A stretch of DNA of 64,000 bases from Verrucomicrobiota bacterium. Its GTDB lineage: Bacteria > Verrucomicrobiota > Verrucomicrobiia > Limisphaerales > Palsa-1400. Where the stretch lies: assembly GCA_049510745.1 (NCBI GenBank), contig JBEKYR010000001.1, forward strand, positions 224,001 through 288,000. The letters are read 5' to 3'. The notes below the pieces were generated by a model. That model was not told where the DNA came from. It made no database searches and saw nothing but the letters and a program-made list of their open reading frames with translations. Of the stretch, positions 1 to 58,933 are shown piece after piece. Both the position numbers and the translations under genes were made by a program. Numbering within the stretch: position 1 is the first letter of the stretch; every line of letters begins with the position of its first letter.

Positions 1-1251
1 GCGCTGGCGAACAACTCCGACGGGCAGGGCCATTCTTACGGCAGCCACCTGAATTTTCTGGTCACGCGCCGCGCTTGGAGCGATTTGTTCGAGCGGCGGT
101 TGCAACATCTGCTCTTTCTTGCCGCCTACCAGGCCTCCAGCATCGTGTTTACAGGGCAGGGGAAAATCGGCGCCGAAAACAACCGTCCGCCGGTGCAGTA
201 CCAGATTTCGCAGCGGGCGGATTTCTTCGAGGTGTTAATGGGGCCGCAGACGACGTGGAACCGCCCCCTGATAAACAGTCGCGATGAGGCTTTATGTGGT
301 CCGTGGTATGGAGCCAGCGCGAGTCCAGACTCGGTAGAAAAGGCACGGTTGCACGTCATTTTCTATGACCAAACTCTTTGCCACACCGCCAGCCTGCTCA
401 AGGTCGGGGTGATGCAGATTATTCTCGCTATGATCGAGGCCGGAAGCGTTCGCACCAGCATCGTGCTTGATGATCCAGTTGAAGCGGTTTGGCAGTGGAG
501 CCACGACCCGACACTGCATTGCCGCGTGCGGCTGGCGGACGGCCGCAACCTCACCGCCGTCGAGTTGCAGATGCTGTTTTGGGAGGAGGCGCAGCGTTTT
601 GTCGCCAGCGGCGGCTGCACCGACATCGTGCCGGACGCGCCACACATCCTCGAACTCTGGTCAGACACACTGGGCGAACTGCGCGCGCGCGACTATGCCG
701 CACTGGCGCGCCGGCTGGATTGGGTCCTCAAACTGCAGATCCTCCAGCGCGCGCGACAGCAACGGCCCAATCTCACCTGGGCCTCGGCGGAGCTCAAACA
801 TTTGGACTTCATGTACGGCAGCCTCGAAGACGGACTGTACTGGGACCTCGAAAAAAACGGCCTGGTTAACGCTCTTGTCACCAGCGAAGAGATCGAACAC
901 TTCCGCAATGAACCGCCGGAAAACACACGCGCGTGGACCCGCGCGAGGTTGCTGCGCCTGGCCGAACCGCAGCAGATCGAGCGTGTGGACTGGGACAGCA
1001 TCACCTTTTCGCTCAAGGGCGACCATTACTGGCCGCGCGAAAGCACGGTCAATCTGACCAATCCGCTTGGCTTTACGCGAACTGCCTGCCAACGGGTCTT
1101 TCAGCTTTCGACTACCCTGGAGGAGGCGTCGGCCATGTTAAGCGCCAATCAGGACGGAACGGCAGCCATTTCGCCAACAAACGCAGCCGTGCAGGAACCA
1201 ATCCAAATTGAAGGAGATCACCATGAATCAACGCGAACGCCCCCAGCATGA
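1..1251 (+). CDS. Dop/PafA-family (Pup deamidase/ligase-like) protein, 5' end outside window
   Basis: Frame is open from base 1. Motifs NNSDGQGHSYGSHLNF, QISQRADFFE, RPLINSRDE, RLHVIFYD and LDWVLK match Dop/PafA motifs; QRADFFE is Dop-like. Confidence 0.85.
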   Translation, partial: ALANNSDGQGHSYGSHLNFLVTRRAWSDLFERRLQHLLFLAAYQASSIVFTGQGKIGAENNRPPVQYQISQRADFFEVLMGPQTTWNRPLINSRDEALCGPWYGASASPDSVEKARLHVIFYDQTLCHTASLLKVGVMQIILAMIEAGSVRTSIVLDDPVEAVWQWSHDPTLHCRVRLADGRNLTAVELQMLFWEEAQRFVASGGCTDIVPDAPHILELWSDTLGELRARDYAALARRLDWVLKLQILQRARQQRPNLTWASAELKHLDFMYGSLEDGLYWDLEKNGLVNALVTSEEIEHFRNEPPENTRAWTRARLLRLAEPQQIERVDWDSITFSLKGDHYWPRESTVNLTNPLGFTRTACQRVFQLSTTLEEASAMLSANQDGTAAISPTNAAVQEPIQIEGDHHESTRTPPA

Positions 1252-48774: not shown

Positions 48775-49254
48775 CTACGGCTGTTTGCGGAAAATCTCGG
48801 AAACGTCCAGCACGTTCATCGACACCAGATCGACGCTTTGCTCCGGGGCGCGCTGTTGGGCGGCTTGCAGTTGCCGGCCAACCTCCCGGAGGGTCGCGGC
48901 GGCGTAATACTTGACGGCGCCGACGCTCAGTTCCGCCTTGAAAATGACGATCAGCAGCACGTTTTCGTCGATGTTGCAAAAGAGCAGGCTGTAGCGCTCG
49001 CCCTGCTGGTAAATGGAGGCGAAATCCGCCTCGCCCAACAGGCCGGCGATGGCCTGCGTGGCGCAAAACGACCCGGCGGCCAGGGCGGAAATGGTGGTGG
49101 TGTCAAATTGGTCCACCGCCCCGCGCTGGCCGATGAGCGGGCCGCCCTTGTCGATGATCAGGGCCGCGGTCGCCTCGCTCTTGCGCAGCAACTCGTCCAG
49201 CGCCCCGTCCAGCAATTGGACGTCTTCGGCTATCAGCGGCGGCAGCCCCGGCAT
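48775..49254 (-). CDS. mglB: Roadblock/LC7 protein, MglB-like
   Basis: ALIIDKGG, ISALAAGSF.AT..IA.LLGE..F; adjacent to mglA. Confidence 0.85.
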   Translation of the reverse strand: MPGLPPLIAEDVQLLDGALDELLRKSEATAALIIDKGGPLIGQRGAVDQFDTTTISALAAGSFCATQAIAGLLGEADFASIYQQGERYSLLFCNIDENVLLIVIFKAELSVGAVKYYAAATLREVGRQLQAAQQRAPEQSVDLVSMNVLDVSEIFRKQP

Positions 49255-49255
49255 A

Positions 49256-49867
49256 TCAGGTGGTCTTTCGGGCGGCTTCGTTGATGAATTTGTTGAGCAA
49301 CAGGCGCGTGATCATGTTCAGGGCCTCGAACACCCCCTCGCACCGGGAGGCGACCGACGGAAACGAGGGCGCCTGCACGTCCCGGTTGTTGAGCAGGAAC
49401 TCCATGTACTCGATCGGCGCCGCCGTCGGCAGGTCGCGCTTGTTGTACTGCAGCACGTAGGGAATCTCGGCGAAGTTCAGTCGCAGCGTCTTGAGGTTCT
49501 CCTCCAGGTTCTGGAAGCTCTCCACGTTTTCCGCCATTTTCTCGTATTGCGAGTCGGCCACAAAGACGATCCCGTCCACCCCGCGCAGGACCAGTTGGCG
49601 GGTCGTGTTGTAAATGACCTGACCGGGAACGGTGTAAAGTTGAAATTTCGTCTTGAACCCTTTGATGGCCATGGCTTCGATGGGCAGGAAATCAAAAAAC
49701 AGGGTGCGGTCCGAGCTGGTCGCCAGCGAAACCAGTTTGCCCTTCTCCTGCACGTTTTGCACGTTGGCGTGGACCTGTTCGAGATTGGTCGTCTTGCCGC
49801 CTTTGCCCGGCCCGTAATAGACGACTTTGACCTGCAGTTCCTTCGTTGCTTGATTGATGATTGCCAT
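49256..49867 (-). CDS. mglA: MglA-family small GTPase
   Basis: YYGPGKGGKTTNL, DRTLFFDFLP, YTVPGQV, FVADS, QYNKRDLP. Confidence 0.94.
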   Translation of the reverse strand: MAIINQATKELQVKVVYYGPGKGGKTTNLEQVHANVQNVQEKGKLVSLATSSDRTLFFDFLPIEAMAIKGFKTKFQLYTVPGQVIYNTTRQLVLRGVDGIVFVADSQYEKMAENVESFQNLEENLKTLRLNFAEIPYVLQYNKRDLPTAAPIEYMEFLLNNRDVQAPSFPSVASRCEGVFEALNMITRLLLNKFINEAARKTT

Positions 49868-49873
49868 AAATCA

Positions 49874-51613
49874 TTATTGCTTGCGCCGGGCCAGTTCGCC
49901 GGCTACCCGTTGCAGCGCCGCTTCCGGCAGGGCCTGGCCCGCCTTGCCCACCACCGCCAGATAGAGCGGCCCGGCTTTGAAAATGACGTGCGGCGCCCCG
50001 CCCACGGTCAGGGTCAGCGCCTCCAGTGTTCCCAGTCGGGCCTCACCCGCGTAATGGGCCACGCGCCCAAACATCTGCGGCAGGAACGCCGCCAGCGTAT
50101 CGACGTTCAGCGGCGCCTGCGCCTGCCCGGCCACGAGCAATCCGTCCGCTGTCGCCAGAAGGCTGCCGGCCACGCCCGGCATCGCGCTGATCCCTTGCGC
50201 GATTTCCTCGGGCGACCATTCCGTTTTCGACGGCTGCCCGAAAACTTCTCCCAACACATCCGCTTCCGCCGCCGGTTGCGGCGCGGCCACCGGGGCGGCT
50301 GCCGGCTCCGGCTGGGCTGAAGGCGCGGGCGTCGCGGCGGGCGCGGCCGCTCTGCCCAAGCCGCCAAAGAGGTCCGGAATGTTGTCCCCAATCGTGACCT
50401 TTTTTTGGGCCGCCGCGCGATGCTTCGCCATGAAGAGCGGGGCGATCACTCTGAGCGGCAATTCCACCTGCGTCTCGCCGTGTGGCGAGGGGGTGGCCGG
50501 CGGAGCACTGAGCCAGCCGCTCAATTCGCCCCACGTAAACACGACACGCCCCGCTTTCAGCGCCGCCTCGAGCCGGTTCAGCGGGATGGACACCGGCGCG
50601 TTCTTGAAGTTGTTTTTTTCGATCTCTTGCCGGATGGCCTGGGGCCACGCCTCGCAAAGGGCTCCGATTGTCGTCACCACCGGTTCACCGGCCACAACTG
50701 GCGCCGCCGCAGGCCTCGCGGGAGGAGCGGGCCGCGTTGTCGCGAAGGGCAAAGGCGATGCCGGCTTCGGTCCGGCAAAGGGCAGCGGGGCGGGCGCCGG
50801 TGGCCTTGGCGCCGCCGGTCCGGGCGTCATCGAGGGCGCCGGTCTCGACAGACCCGGCGACGGAATGACGGGCTTGGGCAAGGTCGGCAGCGATGGCGCC
50901 GACACGACGGGCCTTGGCAACGAAGGCTGCGGCGCGGCGGGCACGACGGGCTTTGGCAAACCAGGCAGCGGCGCGGTGGGAACAACGGGTTTGGGAGCGG
51001 GCGTCGGAGGCACGGGCGGCGGCGGCGCGGGCGCGGCGGGAAGCGGACTTGCGGGAGCAGCGGACTTTGGAGCCGCCGCCACCGCGGCGCGCCAGCCCGG
51101 CGTGATGCCCTTGGGGCCGAACACTCCGGTCACTTCATCCGGCACTTCGACGCGCCTTTGATCCGCCCGCCGCGCGAGCCGGCCGGGGCCAAGCGCGGCC
51201 AAGACCAGCGGCAAAGGCAGATCAATCAGCGAATCGTCCTGACTGGCATCGTCAGCAAAGGTGCCCGGGGGCGAGGCTTGCCGCAATTGGCCGAACGGGA
51301 CCCTCACCGCCCCAAACCGCAGTTGCTCGACCGCCTCGCTGGCAGAGACCGAGAACGTCCCACCGGGACGCGATCTCACCAACGGCGCCATGCTGTTCGG
51401 GAGCCTCGACAAAATTTCGTCCATCGGCAACAGAAGCGCATCGCCGACGGCCAAAGGCGCGGGCGGGACGCCCGGCGAAGGCGGCGCGGCGGCGGCGGGC
51501 GCGCGGACGGACGGTGGAGCGGGTGCGGACGGAGCCGCGGGAGCGGCCGCCGGGGCCGCGGCAGGCGGCGAACTCGCCGGCCTCGAAAATAATCTTTTGA
51601 GAGCGCCAAACAT
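49874..51613 (-). CDS. Proline-rich protein with two internal repeated domains and C-terminal roadblock/LC7 domain
   Basis: Long Pro/Ala linkers; C-terminal PGVAGSLLATADGLLVA roadblock motif; co-oriented with mglA/mglB. Confidence 0.75.
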   Translation of the reverse strand: MFGALKRLFSRPASSPPAAAPAAAPAAPSAPAPPSVRAPAAAAPPSPGVPPAPLAVGDALLLPMDEILSRLPNSMAPLVRSRPGGTFSVSASEAVEQLRFGAVRVPFGQLRQASPPGTFADDASQDDSLIDLPLPLVLAALGPGRLARRADQRRVEVPDEVTGVFGPKGITPGWRAAVAAAPKSAAPASPLPAAPAPPPPVPPTPAPKPVVPTAPLPGLPKPVVPAAPQPSLPRPVVSAPSLPTLPKPVIPSPGLSRPAPSMTPGPAAPRPPAPAPLPFAGPKPASPLPFATTRPAPPARPAAAPVVAGEPVVTTIGALCEAWPQAIRQEIEKNNFKNAPVSIPLNRLEAALKAGRVVFTWGELSGWLSAPPATPSPHGETQVELPLRVIAPLFMAKHRAAAQKKVTIGDNIPDLFGGLGRAAAPAATPAPSAQPEPAAAPVAAPQPAAEADVLGEVFGQPSKTEWSPEEIAQGISAMPGVAGSLLATADGLLVAGQAQAPLNVDTLAAFLPQMFGRVAHYAGEARLGTLEALTLTVGGAPHVIFKAGPLYLAVVGKAGQALPEAALQRVAGELARRKQ

Positions 51614-51710
51614 GGATCGAGCTGGCCCCATACTGCCAGAGTCCGGGCCGGTTCGTCGATAGCAAACTCGCATCGTGAAAAATCCTCCGAATCCTGGCGG
51701 CTTTCCGGGA

Positions 51711-51766
51711 GGAATCGAAGCCTTCCCCGTCGAGGTGGAGGTCAATTCCGGCTGGGGGGATACGGT
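51711..51766 (+). pseudogene. comM 5' fragment, copy A (GIEAFPVEVEVNSGWGDTV; no start)
   Basis: Near-identical to about 56884-56938 of intact comM. Confidence 0.9.
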
Positions 51767-51824
51767 AATGGCGTTATGAAAAGAACTGGTCTTGCGCGGG
51801 AAAGCGGATTACAGTTGTTTCGTT

Positions 51825-52040
51825 ATGCAGACAGTCGCCATTGAAATAGCGCAGGCCACACTCGCGGATCTGCTCAAACAGGTCGCGGACGGCGAGGAGT
51901 TCACCATCACACAGCATGGCCAGCCGAAGGCGAAGCTTTCGGCAGTCTCGTCGCGCAGGCGCCCGCAAGCGCGAGTGGGGAGTTTGCCGGGGGGAATATG
52001 GCTCTCGCCGGATTTTGACGGGCCGGTGGATGACTTATAG
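51825..52040 (+). CDS. Phd/YefM-type antitoxin (VapB-like)
   Basis: LADLLKQV..GEE..IT.HGQP.AKL and C-terminal DFDGP pattern. Confidence 0.8.
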   Translation: MQTVAIEIAQATLADLLKQVADGEEFTITQHGQPKAKLSAVSSRRRPQARVGSLPGGIWLSPDFDGPVDDL

Positions 52041-52212
52041 CTTTGAACTGCTGCCTGTTTCCTGTCTGCATTTGAATCAACTGGCGGCACTCCCGTTTCA
52101 TCACCGTGATCCATTTGACCGGTTGTTGATCGCCCAGGCACTTGCTGAAGACATGACCATTGTCAGGCGCGACACGGCATTTTCGCAATACCCGGCGAAA
52201 ATTATCTGGTAA
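52030..52212 (+). pseudogene. VapC/PIN toxin, N-terminal half missing
   Basis: Only LP...HHRDPFDRLLIAQA...D..F..Y C-terminal half present (60 aa); no N-terminal LDT motif. Confidence 0.8.
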
Positions 52213-52361
52213 TTGCGTTGGTTGTCGGGCCTTTCATGGTCAAGTGATCGGGGATGGGGGCGACTTCTTAAATTGATCAGGTTGTCTGAATCGCAGTCAG
52301 CCTGATTCGTGCGTTGACGCATACGCGATCTCTCGTTAGCCTTCGCTCGAACCATGTCGCA

Positions 52362-53921
52362 ATGAACACTCGGACCGCTCGCACCGGCTCAATCGCCGAT
52401 CTCGTCCGCCCGTTGCTGGCCTGCCTGCTGCTGATCGGGCCGGCGGCGCGGGCCGGAATCGTCATCACCAATTTCACCGGAACGAATGTGATCCGCATTC
52501 TGCCCGCCGGCGATTCGATCACCGATGACTGCGAGGTCGTGGGCGCGTGGCGGAAACCGCTCCAGCCGCTGCTCGACAGCAATCACATCCCCTTCATCTT
52601 CATCGGCCGCAACGTTTCCTCCCCGACCCTGCCCTATTTCACCAAGACCAAACACGAAGGCTACTGTGGCGCTGTCGTCGCTCCTCCGGGCGTGTTCGGG
52701 GCTTACTCTTACGCGCAAGCAAACAATTACACCGAGAAGACCCTTTCCGATGCCTTGAAGACCACGGTCGTCACCAACCCAAACATCGTCCTCGTGTTGA
52801 TCGGCGCCAACGACATCGGCCGCGGGCGCGATCCCTACCACACGGCCTACATCGACATGACCAACCTGCTCAACATCATCCTCACAAACGTCCCTGCCGC
52901 GAATGTCATTTTCACGAAGATTACCTCGCTCAGCAATGCCAGCCTCGGCTACGCCACGTATTCGACCAATGTCCCGATCTACAACAACGCCCTCGAACAG
53001 ATGGTCAACCAGAAGCGGGCCGAGGGCCTGAATGTCACCCTGGCTGACATGTTTTCGGTCAACCCCTATGGGACCGCTTTCTACCTGAGCGATCATCTCC
53101 ATGCCAACGCAGCGGGCTTGACCAATATCGCCAGGGAATGGTTCACGCGCATCCAAACCCTCATCACCGGCACCAACCAGATCACCGCCGCCCTCATCAG
53201 CGCAGGCGCGACCTGGTCGTATTCCGACACCGGGACCGATCTGGGCACCAACTGGACGCAACCTTTCTACGACGACAGCGCTTGGGCCAGCGCGCCGGCG
53301 CGATTCGGTTACGGCGAGCCGGTTCCCGAGACCCCGCTCAGCTTCGGGTCCAGCTCCACCAACGTCAACCCGACGACCTATTTCCGGACGAAGTTTGTCG
53401 TGCCGTGGAACGAAAATTTCACGAACCTCAATTTCCGCCTCTCGCAAACGGGCGGCGCGGTCGTCTGGCTCAACGGCGTCGAAGCCTACCGCACCAACCT
53501 CCCGGCCGGGCCAATCACCTATTCCACCCTCGCCACCGCGAACATCGGCAACGAAAACGAATACATCCTCTTCCCCACCAATCTGGCGCTGACGTTGCCG
53601 CCGGGAACCAACGTCATCGCGGTGGAAGTCCACCAAAGCGCTCTCACCAGACAGAACCTCGGCTTCGATTTCGAGTTGCTCGGGGGCGCCTTCGTGCTTC
53701 CCAACCCAACCCTCACGGCCTCCCTCGCCGGCAACAACATTTCCCTGACCTGGCCGCTGACCAACTGCAGCGCCTTCACTCTTTACTCTTCGGCCACGCT
53801 TGTTCCTCCAAACTGGCAGCCTTTCTCATCCAGTCTCTTCCAGACCAACAACGGCCAGATCACCGCCCCGATCACTCCCGGCCCCGGCTCCGCCTTCTTT
53901 CGACTCCAGCTTGGTCAATAA
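52362..53921 (+). CDS. Secreted SGNH/GDSL hydrolase with C-terminal beta domains
   Basis: GDSIT, IGAND and DHLH motifs; hydrophobic N-terminus. Confidence 0.85.
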   Translation: MNTRTARTGSIADLVRPLLACLLLIGPAARAGIVITNFTGTNVIRILPAGDSITDDCEVVGAWRKPLQPLLDSNHIPFIFIGRNVSSPTLPYFTKTKHEGYCGAVVAPPGVFGAYSYAQANNYTEKTLSDALKTTVVTNPNIVLVLIGANDIGRGRDPYHTAYIDMTNLLNIILTNVPAANVIFTKITSLSNASLGYATYSTNVPIYNNALEQMVNQKRAEGLNVTLADMFSVNPYGTAFYLSDHLHANAAGLTNIAREWFTRIQTLITGTNQITAALISAGATWSYSDTGTDLGTNWTQPFYDDSAWASAPARFGYGEPVPETPLSFGSSSTNVNPTTYFRTKFVVPWNENFTNLNFRLSQTGGAVVWLNGVEAYRTNLPAGPITYSTLATANIGNENEYILFPTNLALTLPPGTNVIAVEVHQSALTRQNLGFDFELLGGAFVLPNPTLTASLAGNNISLTWPLTNCSAFTLYSSATLVPPNWQPFSSSLFQTNNGQITAPITPGPGSAFFRLQLGQ

Positions 53922-54047
53922 TTGCACCCCTGCGCGGAAATGATTTTTGGCGACCGGCGGCAGGCGCCATCCGTGTCAGTCCTCACTATTTGCTCTGACC
54001 GGCCGCGTAATCGTCCTCACGGTTAATCCGCCTTCTCCAAAGGAGGG

Positions 54048-54203
54048 CAAAAACCGTATTGCCCTTGCGCCCCCGTTCGCCCAACACCCCCCCATGCTGG
54101 CGCGTGTCCTGTCCGCTGCGGTCAATGGCATCGAAGCCTTCCCCGTCGAGCTGGAGGTCAATTCCGGCTGGGGGATACGGTCATCGTGATTGTCGGCCTG
54201 CCC
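54048..54203 (+). pseudogene. comM upstream region + 5' fragment, copy B (frameshifted in G run)
   Basis: AAAAACCGTATTGCCCT...ATG at 54094 MLARVLSAAVNGIEAFPVELEVNSGW, continuing out of frame to VIVGLP. Confidence 0.9.
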
Positions 54204-54223
54204 GCGCTTTCACCAGCCTTCGT

Positions 54224-54541
54224 TCAAATCACGTCAATCAGATGAGTTGTCATATATATTTCTAGTTGATGGAAGCGAGACTTCAGGCCCTCTTTGAAGT
54301 CGCGGGAGAACTCCCGGTGTTCCACGAGGTCTTCGACATCAATAATGACACGCATTAAATCATCTGAATAGACGTCTTCCTCATGCCGCCAGCGCCCTCG
54401 AATGACCTGAGTTTCCCACGAAACCGCGCCGAAATGATTCTCCAATTCAAGAAGCGTGTCGGCAATCAGGGCGTCAGGCACCGCTTGGCCGTCATTGAAC
54501 CGCAGTGGCAGGAGTATCTCGTAACGACGTGAGGCGCTCAT
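54224..54541 (-). CDS. Small hypothetical protein (RRYEILLPLRFNDG...), downstream member of an overlapping gene pair
   Basis: 105 aa ORF overlapping the upstream small ORF; natural-looking composition. Confidence 0.65.
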   Translation of the reverse strand: MSASRRYEILLPLRFNDGQAVPDALIADTLLELENHFGAVSWETQVIRGRWRHEEDVYSDDLMRVIIDVEDLVEHREFSRDFKEGLKSRFHQLEIYMTTHLIDVI

Positions 54542-54713
54542 ACGTGGCAGGACCTTCGACGGTAAAATGGAAACTTTCCCCAGCAAGAGAGGCCAAAGCC
54601 GCTTCCGGCACCATCACCTCGCCCGTGGCCCAACTCTTGCCCGGGAAGCGTCTGGCGATGTAACCGAGCGCCCTTCGTTTGGATTCTTCATCGGCAAATC
54701 GTATGATGACCAT
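54492..54713 (-). CDS. Small hypothetical protein, upstream member of gene pair
   Basis: 73 aa ORF MVIIRFADEESKRRALG... Confidence 0.55.
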   Translation of the reverse strand: MVIIRFADEESKRRALGYIARRFPGKSWATGEVMVPEAALASLAGESFHFTVEGPATYERLTSLRDTPATAVQ

Positions 54714-54764
54714 GATTGGAGCATAATGGCCTTTGCGAACTTTGGCAAGCCTGCGTGAACAACC

Positions 54765-55016
54765 CAAAACCGCATTGCCCTTGCGCCCGCCCCACGCGCA
54801 AGCGTCATCTTGACAATTTGTTCACTTGTCGCCCAACATTCCGTCCATGCTGGCGCCTGTCCTGTCCGCTGCCTTGTCCGCCATAGCGCCGGGAAGCGCG
54901 ACGGCGGATGTCAACGGCATCGAAGCCTTCCCCCGTCGAGGTGGAGGCGAGGAAATTGACATGGCGAAGGCCAAGGGGCAGGAATCCGTCAAGCGGGAGT
55001 TGGAGATCGCGGCAGG
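54765..55016 (+). pseudogene. comM upstream region + 5' fragment, copy C, fused to an internal comM segment
   Basis: ATG at 54847; after ...GTGGAGG (54947) sequence switches to EEIDMAKAKGQESVKRELEIAA, matching comM about 57417-57485. Confidence 0.9.
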
Positions 55017-55038
55017 CACAAAAAATGGCTTCTTTTGG

Positions 55039-55064
55039 TTTGCCATTTGGCATGGCAAATGGCA
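55039..55064. promoter_or_regulatory. Overlapping inverted repeats, putative antitoxin operator
   Basis: TGCCATTTG-N6-CAAATGGCA and TTTGCCAT-N5-ATGGCAAA immediately upstream of the AbrB-like gene. Confidence 0.55.
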
Positions 55065-55076
55065 TGGTTATTGGAA

Positions 55077-55328
55077 ATGGAAGCCGTTATTACGATGGAT
55101 AAATTTGGACGCATGGTTCTTCCCAGGCCAATGCGGAAGGCGCTGCAGATATCCCGGCCCGCCGCATTCAAGGCGGAGGTCATGGGCAACAAAGTGGAGC
55201 TTACTTTGGTCGCCCCGGAGCGAAGCGCGGTATTGAAAAAGCGGCGCGGTCTTCTAGTTGTTTCAACCGGCGGGCGAAAGTTTAACGCGGCTGAGGCGGT
55301 AAGCGCCATGCGCGAGGAGCGCTTCTGA
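55077..55328 (+). CDS. AbrB/MazE/SpoVT-family antitoxin
   Basis: ITMDKFGRMVLPRPMRKAL swapped-hairpin motif. Confidence 0.85.
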   Translation: MEAVITMDKFGRMVLPRPMRKALQISRPAAFKAEVMGNKVELTLVAPERSAVLKKRRGLLVVSTGGRKFNAAEAVSAMREERF

Positions 55329-55445
55329 TTACTGTTGCATTTACAGGCTGCGCGCCGGGGAGCTGCGAAACGCATTTTCACCATTAACGTCCGGCACTTT
55401 CAAATTTTCGCCCCTGACCTGAGAAGCATCATCTCGCTACCGTAG
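55329..55445 (+). pseudogene. C-terminal remnant of a PIN-like toxin
   Basis: Read by hand: LLLHLQAARRGAAKRIFTINVRHFQIFAPDLRSIISLP*, directly after the antitoxin stop, no start codon. Confidence 0.6.
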
Positions 55446-55471
55446 GCTCGGAACATTTTTCCACGCCTTGC

Positions 55472-55765
55472 GCAAAAACCGCATTGCCCTTGCGCCCGCC
55501 CCACGCGCGAGCGTCATCTTGACAATTTGTTCACTTGTCGCCCAACATCCCCTCATGCTGGCGCGTGTTTTGTCCGCTGCCTTGTCTGCCATCTTGTCCG
55601 CCAAAGCTCCGCCGGAAGCGGCGGCGGAAGCGCCGGGAAGCGCGACGGCGGAGGCCAACGGCATCGAAGCCTTCCCCGTCGAGGTGGAGGTCAATTCCGG
55701 CTGGGGGATACGACCGTGGTCATCGTCGGCTTTGCCGGATACGGCGGTAAAGAAATCGCGCGACC
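55472..55765 (+). pseudogene. comM upstream region + 5' fragment, copy D (frameshifted)
   Basis: ATG at 55555; similarity extends to ...PDTAVKKSRD; 72-bp in-frame palindromic insert. Confidence 0.9.
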
Positions 55766-55785
55766 AGGGCTTGATACGAAACCCA

Positions 55786-56016
55786 TCACGCCGTTTTCGA
55801 TGAACGCCCCTTTGCCGGTTCCACGAGTTTGATTTGCTGCGCGTTGAGGATTTTGAAATGTCCTCCCTCGTCGTACAGCACGACCGTCTGGCGGTCGGGA
55901 CTGACCATCAAATAATCAGTGTGGGCGACAACGAAGGATTGTTGGTTGCCCAAGACAATCCGAACCGGCTTAAATGGGTCGGCCTGCATCAATCCTTTGA
56001 TCTCATCAGCAATCAT
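55786..56016 (-). CDS. Small hypothetical protein (PFKPVRIVL...)
   Basis: 76 aa ORF filling the gap between copies D and E. Confidence 0.6.
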   Translation of the reverse strand: MIADEIKGLMQADPFKPVRIVLGNQQSFVVAHTDYLMVSPDRQTVVLYDEGGHFKILNAQQIKLVEPAKGRSSKTA

Positions 56017-56091
56017 TGGCCGAACATAGTCGAGGATTGCGCGAAAGGCAATCTTCAAACCGCTGGATTTGCGCTGTTATGGGCATGGGCA

Positions 56092-56267
56092 CAAAAACCG
56101 CATTGCCCTTGCGCCCGCGTTGGCCCAACATCCCCCCATGCTGGCGCGTGTCCTGTCCGCTGCCTTGTCCGCCCTAGCGCCGAAAAGCGCGACGGCGGAG
56201 GTCAATGGAATCGAAGCCTTCCCCGTCGAGGTGGAGGTCAATACAGGCTGGGGTGACACAACCGTCG
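56092..56267 (+). pseudogene. comM upstream region + 5' fragment, copy E
   Basis: ATG at 56138; MLARVLSAA[LSALAPKSATAE]VNGIEAFPVEVEVNTGWGDTTV, then diverges. Confidence 0.9.
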
Positions 56268-56427
56268 CACTAATTACGTCGATTTCGCCTATTTCATGTC
56301 CGCCGTTTCTCGTTCCGGAAATTCCCCGGTGTTACCCAGTTCAAAGTGAGGACTCCTGCGGACAGAACTTACTAAAGCTAGGCACCCAAGTCCCCCTCTG
56401 ATATTTGAAAATACACAAGCCATCTTA

Positions 56428-56739
56428 ATGAGCCACATCGAACCAAAGCATATCCCGTTTGCTGTATCTCTGTTGCCATTCTTCGGCTTTGGTATTGCTC
56501 TCCCAGTCACGGTTCAAGATTGGTATCACGGTCGGTTGATGCACGGAGATGGGATGGCCTTTTTGGTTGGATTGGTAATCGTTGCTGCGTGGGAGTGGGC
56601 GATTCTTCTGAGCGTCAAATCGAAGAAAAGGCGAGGACAGGAGCGGCTCCTAGGACGAGAGCTTAGTTCATGGCATTGGGCGCCACCTGTTACTTTCGTG
56701 ACAGGAGTCGGATGTGGTCTGATGTTTTTAGTCAGATGA
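56428..56739 (+). CDS. Small membrane protein
   Basis: 103 aa with three hydrophobic segments; lower GC than flanks. Confidence 0.55.
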   Translation: MSHIEPKHIPFAVSLLPFFGFGIALPVTVQDWYHGRLMHGDGMAFLVGLVIVAAWEWAILLSVKSKKRRGQERLLGRELSSWHWAPPVTFVTGVGCGLMFLVR

Positions 56740-56850
56740 GTCAGGGGTCGCTCCTTTGTCTGAAAAGGGGTCACTTTCCGTTCGGCCTTCCCCAAACGGG
56801 AGAAAAAATCCGCATTGCCCTCGCGCCTTCATTCCCCCAACATCATGCCC

Positions 56851-58377
56851 ATGCTCGCGCGTGTTCTGTCCGCTGCGGTCAATGGGATTGAAGCCTTCCC
56901 CGTCGAGGTGGAGGTCAATTCCGGCTGGGGCGATACCACCGTCGTCATCGTCGGGTTGCCGGATACGGCGGTCAAGGAATCGCGCGACCGCGTCAGCACC
57001 GCCCTGACCAATTCCGGGTTCAAATTTCCCATGGGCCGGACCACCATCAACCTGGCCCCGGCGGATGTGCGCAAGGAGGGGCCGAGTTTCGATCTGCCCA
57101 TCGCCATCGGGATGCTCGCAGCCAGCGACCAACTCATGTCCGATCTCACGGACCATTTCGTCATGGTGGGCGAACTGGCGTTGACCGGGCAGGTGCGGCC
57201 CGTCAAAGGCGTCCTGCCCGTCGCCTGGCGGGCGCGCGCGGAGAAAATGACCGGCGTTATCGTGCCGGTGGAAAACGCGGCCGAGGCGGCGGTGGTGGAA
57301 GGGTTGCAGGTCATCCCGGTGGAGAATTTGCGCCAGGCGGCCGGTTTTCTCGAAGGGGAAATCAAAATCGCGCCCACGCAAGTCGATCTGACCAAAGTTT
57401 TTGACCAGGCCTACGACGAAGAGATCGACATGGCGGAGGTCAAGGGCCAGGAATCGGTCAAGCGCGCTTTGGAAATCGCGGCGGCGGGCGGGCACAATTT
57501 GCTGCTCATTGGCCCGCCCGGCACCGGCAAATCCATGCTGGCCAAACGGCTGACCACCATTCTGCCCCCGTTGACGCTGGAGGAGGCTCTGGAGACAACC
57601 AAGATTCACAGCATTGTGGGACTGCTCAAACCCGGACAGGCGCTGGTCACGCGCCGTCCCTTCCGCACCCCGCATCACACCGCCAGCGACGCCGGGTTGC
57701 TGGGCGGCAACGTCAACCCGACTCCCGGCGAAATTTCCCTGGCCCATCACGGCGTGTTGTTCCTGGATGAATTGCCCGAATTCAAACGCGGCGTCCTCGA
57801 GACAATGCGCCAGCCGATCGAGGAAGGCCGCGTGACCATCTCGCGCGCGGCGGGCACCATGACCTTCCCAGCACAATTCATGTTGGTGGCAGCCATGAAT
57901 CCAACGCCGGACGGAAAAATGCCGGGAGAGTCTCGCAGCTCTCCTCGCGAGATTCAGAATTACTTGGGACGCATTTCTGGCCCGTTGCTCGACCGTATTG
58001 ATTTGCATGTGGAAGTGCCGCAAGTGAAATTCCGCGAGATCAGCAGCGAACGGACGGGGGAAGATTCTGCCACCATCCGCGAGCGAGTGGTCGCGGCCCG
58101 AAGAAGGCAGCAGGCCCGTTTCGCCAACAAGCGTGCGGTGACCTGCAATGCCCGGATGGGACCGCGGGAATTGAAAAGCTATTGTGCGCTGGATGAGACG
58201 ACCAAAGAACTGCTCAAGTTTGCCATGGCCGATCTCAATTTGAGCGCCCGAGCGTACGACCGTATCCTGAAAGTCGCCCGCACTATCGCCGATCTGGCTG
58301 GCTCCGAGAACATTGTCGGCGATCACATTGCCGAAGCGATCCAATATCGGTCCCTTGATCGCCAGTTCTGGACGTGA
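56851..58377 (+). CDS. comM: ComM / YifB Mg-chelatase-like AAA+ ATPase
   Basis: VGLPDTAVKESRDRV, NLAPAD.RKEG..FDLPIA, GPPGTGKSMLA, PGEISLAHHGVLFLDE, ISGPLLDRID, ARTIADL. Confidence 0.96.
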   Translation: MLARVLSAAVNGIEAFPVEVEVNSGWGDTTVVIVGLPDTAVKESRDRVSTALTNSGFKFPMGRTTINLAPADVRKEGPSFDLPIAIGMLAASDQLMSDLTDHFVMVGELALTGQVRPVKGVLPVAWRARAEKMTGVIVPVENAAEAAVVEGLQVIPVENLRQAAGFLEGEIKIAPTQVDLTKVFDQAYDEEIDMAEVKGQESVKRALEIAAAGGHNLLLIGPPGTGKSMLAKRLTTILPPLTLEEALETTKIHSIVGLLKPGQALVTRRPFRTPHHTASDAGLLGGNVNPTPGEISLAHHGVLFLDELPEFKRGVLETMRQPIEEGRVTISRAAGTMTFPAQFMLVAAMNPTPDGKMPGESRSSPREIQNYLGRISGPLLDRIDLHVEVPQVKFREISSERTGEDSATIRERVVAARRRQQARFANKRAVTCNARMGPRELKSYCALDETTKELLKFAMADLNLSARAYDRILKVARTIADLAGSENIVGDHIAEAIQYRSLDRQFWT

Positions 58378-58393
58378 ACGACACCAGCCAGCG

Positions 58394-58933
58394 TCAGGCT
58401 GGGTTGACCGTGAAACTCTCCTGAGTCGGATCAAATCCAAGCAAAGCCACAACCCGCTCAAAGTGACTGGGATGTGGCTGGCACCGATTTGTCTCCCAGC
58501 CCCAAAGGGTTTTGACGCTCACCCCCAGTTCTTCGGCGCATTCCTTCCGGTTTTTCCTCAATTCCAGTCGCCGTTTCCTGATTCGTTGCCCCAGGGTGAG
58601 GGGAACTGCCGGTGCTAAAATGGCAATGAATGGGGGTTCGTTGCCTTTGGATGAAGACTAGGGAGTGTTGCCAGCGCGGCCAGAAGCGGAACAGGCTAAC
58701 CCAAAGCAGTCGGTCAGCGGAGTGGAGTTTGGGTTTGAACGTCTGCCGTTTGAGCACGGCGAGTTGATGTGGGAGCGCCAGATTTTGAAGCACGAGCCGG
58801 GATTGGGATTGGAGTCCGGAGAGCAGGGAGCGGAGAAGCGCGAAGAAAATATCAAGCATGACGAGGCCGACTTTGGCCGATCTTATTGAAGAACCAACGT
58901 TTTCGAAGGATTATGGAGTTTTCGCTACCCACA
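58394..58933 (-). mobile_element. Internally deleted IS-like remnant (transposase N-terminus + XRE-type HTH fragment)
   Basis: LQNLALPHQLAVLKR...DRLLW...WPRW N-terminus from 58859; in another frame LGQRIRKRRLEL...ECAEELGVSVKTLWGWE HTH ending 58394; TGTGGGTAGCGAAAACTC possible terminus at 58933; no catalytic core. Confidence 0.6.

Follow-up and report, generated by a model that had tools for sequence, protein, structure and literature searches.

We analyzed a stretch of 64,000 nucleotides from a Verrucomicrobiota genome, called the window below, in which five truncated copies of the 5' end of comM, the gene for a stand-alone helicase of natural transformation, lie in a row upstream of an intact comM. 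On balance, we consider it probable that this array is made of the accumulated scars of repeated breakage and repair of comM, and that these scars have turned into portable cassettes. The window corresponds to G000:C1:224001-288000, where G000 is its genome (5.6 Mb, 60% G+C, 85 contigs) and C1 its contig. Other G numbers denote genomes, L numbers denote comparison loci, and comM is numbered from the A of its ATG as nucleotide (nt) 1.

The initial annotation had reported five same-strand copies of the start of comM upstream of the intact gene. We found all five, beginning at 51711, 54049, 54766, 55474, and 56093. Copies B to E are indeed starts of the gene; copy A has neither promoter nor start codon, and copy C is internally deleted. 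The comM-related parts of the array are the following.

51711..51769, plus strand: copy A, comM nt ~34-92 without the promoter and start; the end adjoins the nt-94 site, with no recognisable arm
54049..54202, plus strand: copy B, promoter and comM nt -46..110, ATG at 54094, frameshifted; the ~nt-110 junction recurs with cargo B at other loci
54766..55020, plus strand: copy C, promoter with an inserted dispersed repeat (54791), ATG at 54847, palindrome (54873)
55474..55765, plus strand: copy D, promoter with the same inserted repeat as copy C (55500), ATG at 55555, 72-nt palindrome (55581), comM nt -46..139
56093..56268, plus strand: copy E, promoter, ATG at 56138, palindrome (56164), comM nt -46..95, nt-94/95 core at 56267-56268
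56269..56353, plus strand: arm resembling that of a left attachment site (attL), type t1 (~25 nt), followed by ~60 nt of a weakly conserved element end; the sole t1 match in G000
56805..56850, plus strand: putative comM promoter region by consensus match, with A-tract, -35-like hexamer, 17-nt spacer, -10-like hexamer, and a few nt to the ATG
56851..58377, plus strand: intact comM, YifB family, 508 codons (PF01078, E=6e-90; PF13541; PF13335)

Copies A to E matched comM with BLASTN E-values from 6e-41 to 3e-6 against the 5.6-Mb genome, and every open frame in B to E terminates early. In copy C, nt -46..64 is joined to 567-~647 by the internal deletion, and the copy ends near the ~651 recombinase site described below, with the arm absent. 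The leaders of copies C and D have 80 nt in common at 96% identity, with the dispersed repeat inserted in both. Thus, these two copies are closely related. An in-frame palindrome of 36 or 72 nt follows nt 25 in copies C, D, and E.

The array is genuine, and its assembly is correct. The matches of two other metagenome contigs, to 54162-56168 (100%) and 54884-56925 (99.95%), reproduce the order and the junctions. Four runs, each belonging to a different study, gave contigs that cover the cargos between the copies. None of the long pieces listed has a mismatch, and none spans the whole stretch. Peat metagenomes contain DNA near-identical to the array, and there were no RNA data sets among the listed holders of such DNA. 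That strain variants had been strung together during assembly could be argued from the many relatives with 80-95% similar comM starts in the same samples. However, independent contigs repeat the order and junctions, and arrays are also present in genomes of 1, 5, 6, and 20 contigs (G076, G012, G016, and G014). We regard an assembly artefact as hardly credible.

For comparison we used 228 loci, consisting of genome regions, 57 genome-collection matches, and 100 metagenome matches. They contain 241 distinct comM units: 45 intact, 159 5' pieces, 13 internal or 3' pieces, and a remainder cut by contig ends. Because the loci include related genomes and near-identical metagenome contigs, they are not independent samples, and these counts reflect spread and not the number of events.

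Is comM special? Among the 3,397 genes of at least 150 amino acids (aa) that our own simple gene caller found in G000, comM alone was preceded by three or more copies of its 5' end nearby on the same strand, barring two open reading frames (ORFs) on contig C23 that overlap a repeat occurring in both orientations. A 356-nt query from the comM 5' end gave 113 matches in 29 of the 31 genomes of the family, with at least two matches in 19 genomes, whereas an equal query gave 31 matches in 29 genomes for recA (both extras at contig ends) and 28 matches in 28 genomes for dprA. Among 59 genomes of other families in the order, extra 5' pieces were found in one, the single-contig genome G076, with a protein query that is less sensitive to short decayed pieces. 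Thus, the phenomenon is comM-specific and is concentrated in one family of peat and soil bacteria, with one outside case; comM had rightly been singled out as the target. The earlier claim of clustering at comM holds for the row of five upstream but not for all pieces, as three further pieces of G000 lie downstream on C1 and another three on separate contigs. Named records with both the promoter motif and comM are Verrucomicrobiae/Limisphaerales genomes. The viral collection had no match to the promoter pattern, the t1 arm, or the middle part of comM, so no phage with these comM pieces was found.

The content and number of units vary among relatives, as had been predicted: we counted 93 distinct spacers between consecutive comM units, with a median of 771 nt, in 65 clusters. 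We do not treat the lack of synteny around comM as special evidence, because the adjacent mglA/mglB operon is equally non-syntenic in 5/5 relatives. This mglA/mglB-like operon (window 48775-51613) includes a long Pro/Ala-rich Roadblock-domain protein; the block itself is kept in 5/5 relatives, and its neighbours differ.

The left edges of the pieces largely coincide. We observed that 108/157 pieces begin at -48..-42, a count biased by recovery with the promoter pattern. Conservation drops from ~0.9 to 0.6 at the A-tract, and a weak motif persists upstream of the edge in 33/154 units versus 7 in control windows. The conserved 46 nt fit, as a pattern match, a -35 hexamer, a 17-nt spacer, and a -10 hexamer near the ATG at 23/34 starts across the order; a promoter scan at a 9-of-12 threshold did not call the comM promoter, and the 23/34 came from the looser pattern. 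No competence-regulon motif common to the comM, dprA, recA, and comEC promoters was seen. Since the edge at -46/-47 falls at the upstream boundary of the putative promoter and has a weak conserved tail beyond it, it is best read as the limit of selection on a sigma-70-like promoter and not as a recombination site.

The right ends of the 159 pieces range from nt ~1 to ~657, plus 1055, with the largest cluster at nt 82-105. The shared crossover site that the initial annotation suggested looking for is therefore absent: right ends are spread and are either cassette-specific or on attachment sites. At nt 1054/55 in G012, comM is split by 59 kb with inverted ends, and a 500-aa Resolvase+Recombinase gene lies at the left end beside attL. 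The same left end, with the recombinase beside attL, is also present in L132, L134, G076, and G068. Orphan right ends of this island, consisting of a right attachment site (attR) and a comM 3' piece, lie 31 kb past intact comM in G000 and 4.5 kb past it in G017, and one also occurs in G002. At either end, the shorter comM piece is the one that is stranded: 5' pieces upstream, and attR with a 3' piece in G000 and G017. At nt ~651-657 in G007, comM is split between exact inverted arms, with a 638-aa recombinase at attR. A different arm follows the nt ~651-657 pieces in L174, L177, L183, and L118.

Several observations accompany the nt-1054 island. Its recombinase gene points to attL, and its last codons overlap comM, in L208:12576-14078, L352:5382-6884, and L356:8853-10355. 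The comM halves of G076, split at nt 1054/55 (G076:C1:1611855 and 44442), are 1.57 Mb apart on opposite strands, which suggests an inversion through the island. In G000, the attR with a shortened comM 3' end is at C1:313583-313690, and the 31 kb between it and comM may be island remains. The other downstream pieces are a comM copy with nt ~28-1038 deleted (C1:293100-293637) and an internal piece ending at nt ~1059 (C1:296439-296522). Directly behind the intact gene is the following feature.

58394..58650, minus strand: helix-turn-helix remnant; matches the right-end region of the nt-1054 recombinase island, with 86% DNA identity to L221 over window 58491-58650

A third position is nt 94/95. 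Of the 66 pieces ending at or before nt 106, 41 run into an arm, which is of type t1 in 28, t2 in 8, t3 in 3, and t4 in 2; the controls gave 0.015 in shuffles and 1/118 in read-through copies. The core is GT in 24/36 t1/t2 cases and GC in copy E, and the arms have a further ~60 nt in common. A whole-genome pattern search for t1 gave 21 matches in 15/31 family genomes (control 2): 11 strict and 6 by-eye cases were joined to comM 5' sequence, 2 were joined to a few bases only, and 2 were unrelated. The same search for t2 gave 12 matches in 8 family genomes (control 0), comprising 5 strict and 5 by-eye attL and 2 attR. At both attR (G000 C6:156781 and G045 C3), comM resumes at nt 94 after the reverse complement of t2. 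Across 301 genomes of the order, t1 gave 8 matches in 7 genomes, of which only the family ones were examined further. Copy E would thus be a t1 attL, with a target half, a 2-nt core, and a foreign arm at a fixed position. Because no recombinase could be assigned to nt 94, we only infer that this site belongs with the serine-recombinase islands. One further recombinase lies at a distance of 440 nt from a comM piece whose end is at nt 48 (G008, L240).

Side observations at the nt-94 arms are as follows. A t1 arm marks the precise end of a BglII-like endonuclease and an MT-A70 methyltransferase in L317:213-1503, and this is perhaps the original left end of the nt-94 island. We discarded the idea that the t1 arm is the tail of a reverse-strand recombinase, as frames are not kept and this methyltransferase terminates there. 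The t2 attR of G000 (C6:156781-157384) is followed by comM nt 94-173 and a small gene pair, and the same pair precedes intact comM in G014. An attL-like piece of type t4 lies amid toxin-antitoxin-like genes at G000 C5:4319.

Some loci resemble stages of one process. L174 and L062 are 98.9% identical over 5.6 kb and have three upstream pieces in common; comM is whole in L062 and is cut at nt ~657 into an arm in L174. In L115, a 5' half (-46..653) is followed by 344 nt, an intact comM, 1,507 nt, and a 3' half from nt 658, and the two halves are 82-84% identical to the intact copy. In L211, matching t2 attL and attR lie 2.1 kb apart with another comM start between them. The same locus has an 8-nt microhomology join of comM nt ~139 to a cargo gene, the only such join seen.

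Copies B to E are not local duplicates, in line with the initial annotation: among 43 matches, the resident comM ranks only 24th for copy E, 7th for D, 30th for C, and 26th for B. When pieces are grouped by their rank in the arrays, their identity to the closest intact gene stays level (0.91, 0.90, 0.88, and 0.88), and promoters are kept in 13/17, 9/10, 2/7, and 2/2 pieces.

Between the comM copies lie unrelated small genes, and the cargo listed by the initial annotation was found as described (antitoxin, PIN remnant, SGNH hydrolase, small ORF pair, AbrB-like gene with a toxin tail, and 76-aa and 103-aa ORFs).

51825..52040, plus strand: Phd/YefM antitoxin, 71 aa, intact (PF02604, E=2e-7); cargo that follows comM pieces in L155, L132, and L220 is 78-83% identical in DNA
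52019..52212, plus strand: VapC/PIN toxin remnant with an internal deletion relative to L220 (PF01850, E=1e-5, on frame 51916-52209)
52362..53921, plus strand: GDSL/SGNH hydrolase, 519 aa; ~90% identical copies adjoin comM pieces in L113 and L153
53973..53991, minus strand: half of a palindrome resembling repetitive extragenic palindromic (REP) elements, recurrent near comM pieces; single match in G000
54224..54731, minus strand: cargo B, two overlapping small ORFs of 105 aa and 73-79 aa; no Pfam family, 77-94% shared with many arrays
55021..55470, plus strand: cargo C, possible AbrB/MazE-like antitoxin (55077-55328; E=0.02 only) and 3' tail of a PIN toxin
55786..56016, minus strand: cargo D, 76-aa hypothetical protein in a 323-342-nt unit with both ends conserved
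56428..56739, plus strand: cargo E, 103-aa ORF with hydrophobic stretches; among the comparison loci, found only in near-identical contigs

The cargos behave as exchangeable units. Cargos A-D recur in other genomes at 77-94% identity, and junctions are specific to the cargo: cargo D joins at nt 139/140, cargo B at ~110, and two different gene pairs at 173 and 232, and all four junctions recur across genera. Both ends of the cargo D unit are kept in five arrays with different neighbours, and of its 7 matches in 6 other family genomes, 5 are beside comM pieces. Several cassettes (ends 140, 173, 187, and 232) also occur behind pieces beginning at nt ~84-94, the arrangement that would result if a donor with a cassette had recombined into the part of comM to the right of a cut at nt 94. 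The small cargos have 51-56% G+C compared with 61% for comM. Cargo C lacks ~310 nt of the whole pair in L040/L151, and in both toxin-antitoxin pairs of the window the antitoxin is kept and the toxin deleted.

We scanned 95 cargo proteins from 97 clusters, omitting two clusters with only G000 representatives. Pfam matches were found in 45/95, of which 17 are toxin-antitoxin-type, a tally in which we assume that DUF433/DUF5615 and DUF2442/DUF4160 belong; the rest include hydrolases, extracytoplasmic function (ECF) sigma factors, and regulators. There was no whole recombinase among the 95, with one 66-aa fragment of tyrosine-recombinase type. PADLOC gave no real match on six window proteins, and in the protein atlas the cargo B and D proteins fall in clusters without names. 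One 376-aa ORF, which looks esterase-like, forms an in-frame fusion with a stranded comM start and its promoter (L307:7701-8831). In G014, five comM starts in a row (C4:793269-796830) lie on the strand opposite to intact comM (805630-808058), 9 kb away, with what appear to be ATP synthase and ATP-binding cassette (ABC) transporter genes between.

We propose that the arrays arise as follows. Serine-recombinase islands insert in comM and split it, which is seen at nt ~651 and 1054/55 and would also apply at nt 94/95. DNA of a relative, most likely taken up by transformation, would then pair with the longer surviving part of comM, and its other side would be joined illegitimately or via a short comM piece. 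The gene would be restored only when the whole 46-nt promoter arrives, and the donor's upstream neighbour would be imported too. The shorter old piece, with the promoter and 5' end and often an attL arm, would be left upstream. The unit that results, comM piece, cargo, promoter, and comM start, is the pattern found in the arrays; homologous recombination in comM on both sides could place it in the comM of any relative, irrespective of the flanks, and may mend a broken comM. Stranded pieces and toxins then decay, and we observed deletions, frameshifts, and palindrome insertions in them.

One-sided repair is plausible for two reasons. The genomes do not have flanking genes in common (the control operon likewise), which leaves comM itself as the sole homology. 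Moreover, heterologous stretches are poorly removed when ComM is missing, according to the parts of the comM literature cited below. That many pieces are attL-like scars of comM-breaking elements would explain why comM is affected and not recA or dprA. As G000 has ComEC, DprA, RecA, and ComM with open frames, transformation is the most likely delivery route judging from gene content. The initial annotation had proposed that incoming DNA recombines at comM, supplying a new promoter and N terminus and stranding the old 5' end upstream. This part is supported, but its accretion model missed the comM-breaking islands as the likely cause.

Several observations weigh against this scheme of breakage and repair. 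At nt 94, tblastn with the two island recombinases and a PF07508 search of the 31 genomes (48 matches, 30 taken as loci) revealed no recombinase or whole island by a t1 or t2 arm, and none of the 21 t1 matches was an attR. Of the 66 pieces ending near nt 94, 25 have no arm, as is the case for window copies A-D. The arm motifs were derived from the loci in which they were then counted, leaving the whole-genome searches as the sole outside test, and the left-edge counts are biased because most loci were recovered with the promoter pattern. No remnant of the 1054 island with attL and recombinase was seen upstream of an intact comM. For 36 pieces, the resident comM was the best match in 8 and among the top three in 18; thus, near relatives or local duplication also feed the arrays. 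Two of the seven family matches of cargo D have no adjacent comM piece. Conjugation or gene transfer agents could deliver the DNA instead of transformation.

Could the units instead be mobile themselves? A site-specific recombinase encoded elsewhere might move gene-restoring mini-elements, which are non-autonomous and carry an attachment site with a replacement promoter and comM 5' end, into and out of nt 94/95 in trans, in the manner of tandem tRNA-gene islands or an integron with a remote integrase. The unit from copy E to comM has exactly this layout (core at 56267, second core in intact comM), the t1 arm occurs as attL and never as attR, right ends cluster most at nt 82-105, and the arms share those further ~60 nt. 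Moreover, each unit terminates in a promoter and comM start that leave comM intact, a trait of replacement fragments. However, t2, a relative of t1, has inverted attR copies, like gene-breaking elements; right ends at 26, 110, 139, 173, 232, 394, and 650 have no common core; and no whole recombinase is among the 95 cargo proteins or on C1. Unlike replacement elements, the units have no integrase of their own, and their repeats are 82-94% identical with variable ends, not fixed and near-identical. Contig joints gave no well-supported excision of a unit, and contigs drop rare forms; as to circular cassettes, the joints listed are short-sided and may be from other organisms. In addition, recombination of a hybrid site with attB is not a normal reaction of serine integrases. 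We therefore find this alternative unlikely, although, if a serine recombinase did move nt-94 units in trans, comM would be an integron-like platform with a serine integrase on a protein-coding gene.

Two further alternatives involve no islands or invoke selection on the remains. One-sided (homology-facilitated illegitimate) recombination at the comM 5' end could build rows with no prior breakage; cassette-specific, motif-free junctions, the microhomology join in L211, and the armless copies A-D would fit, but the absence of rows at recA, dprA, and 3,396 other G000 genes and the arms fixed at nt 94/95, ~655, and 1054/55 are left unexplained, which makes this account quite improbable. Lower still do we place selection for the array, in which spare comM starts would be decoy attachment sites for islands or the comM promoter would be lent to cargo. 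Most pieces retain promoters, attL arms are found on mid-array pieces as well, and the L307 piece is fused in frame to its esterase-like ORF. Yet pieces are frameshifted, deleted, and palindrome-bearing; neither toxin of the window is intact; comM is split at 1054/55 in G012 and G076 despite their upstream pieces, which lack this site; and 12/31 family genomes have at most one match. Breakage by islands and repair from relatives is the explanation that we prefer.

Repeats occur in and around some of the pieces. The palindromes after comM nt 25 in the window (54873-54908, 55581-55652, and 56164-56199) are REP-like. Such palindromes after nt 25 were seen in 13 stranded copies, with differing inner sequence and often in frame, and in 0 full-length comM of the set; counting one insertion of another kind, 14/138 copies have an insertion there. 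Palindromes resembling these are dispersed through G000. The dispersed repeat at window 54791-54830 and 55500-55539 separates the -35 region from the -10 region in copies C and D and supplies a perfect -35 hexamer; it occurs at more than 10 other places in G000, with 24-nt tandem arrays on C42 and C62. Three perfect REP-like hairpins lie directly downstream of intact comM in L169:4007-4800, and half-sites lie beside many comM pieces. A 19-nt motif ~80 nt behind the arm was considered as a dedicated second site and rejected: it is half of a REP-like palindrome and occurs on either side of comM pieces.

How does the array compare with known systems? Rows of same-orientation units with small, toxin-antitoxin-rich cargo, common to genomes, are also typical of integrons and tandem tRNA-gene islands. 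The likeness extends to the row layout, the cargo, and the sharing between genomes, but here there is no integrase, no attC, and no single crossover or insertion point, and the common left edge is a putative promoter. Contig C1 has no match to tyrosine (PF00589) or serine (PF07508) recombinases, confirming that the array is free of integrases, and the 14 PF00589 matches of G000 are all elsewhere. A simple pattern for attC (consensus of the R''/R' boxes) gave 0 matches in 51701-56900 on both strands, and there was no Rfam match. Thus, the array is integron-like in outcome only, and the stronger form of the earlier comparison falls.

In the passages available from one survey, the Mg-chelatase-like gene (comM/yifB) is the target of 12.4% of predicted site-specific integrases (PMC10083194). 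Large-serine-recombinase elements as treated there resemble our islands in the target gene, the Resolvase+Recombinase beside split comM, and the 2-nt core with inverted arms at three positions. They differ from the window, which has no recombinase or whole island and where comM is intact and old starts accumulate upstream with new cargo; those passages treat targeting and do not cover repair of the target. Excerpts of other reports describe comM inactivation by AbaR/Tn6022 and other elements as blocking genome curing (PMC11441513, PMC12378983, PMC11014353) and comM loss as hindering removal of heterologous DNA (PMC6158740, PMC11441513). As in our loci, comM is a recurrent target there, and its loss would hinder clean island removal. 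Those excerpts concern the parasite's side and clean deletion, whereas here the elements are serine-recombinase islands and not Tn7-like, and the gene is apparently restored beside the damage, repeatedly and with gene gain.

Arrays of type VI secretion system (T6SS) effector-immunity genes are said, in the passages of PMC9711863, to arise by homology-facilitated illegitimate (one-sided) recombination. There, too, a conserved gene anchors one side, new modules enter beside it, and older remnants lie in a row. The layout of our loci would fit long homology on one side, and microhomology was seen in the L211 join only. The comM arrays differ in several ways. They are anchored on a transformation helicase that stands alone, and what is stranded is the promoter and 5' end of the anchor itself. 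Attachment sites form many of the right ends, and cargo is mixed (toxin-antitoxin pairs, hydrolases, regulators). Erosion of chromosomal toxin-antitoxin genes, as described in part of PMC13617665, resembles what both window pairs show, but here the route of entry is tied to comM. Serine recombinases targeting comM, comM inactivation, and one-sided array building are known; the literature searched, which does not cover subscription journals, gave no description of rows of comM starts.

We also put forward, more tentatively, that these arrays form an integrase-free self-propagating cassette system. The stranded comM promoter and 5' end might then be a universal recombination arm, and any gene between two comM starts would become a repair kit. 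Such a kit would mend comM genes broken by islands in other genera, with the restored gene as its reward; spare starts may absorb islands. The arrays show a route by which genes can be gained with neither an integrase nor conserved flanks, and candidate attachment sites of an undescribed recombinase can be taken from them. Knockout of comM by mobile elements is known, apparently as a defense against curing, and a host response to it is not described in the passages of the comM papers cited above. The arrays look like a countable record of such a counter-move in uncultured Verrucomicrobia-type bacteria: scars can be counted and ordered in each genome, there are three target sites, and some loci show comM before and after a cut. 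Passenger genes are apparently swapped between genera along the way, and the host side of a conflict between gene and parasite would thereby be made visible.

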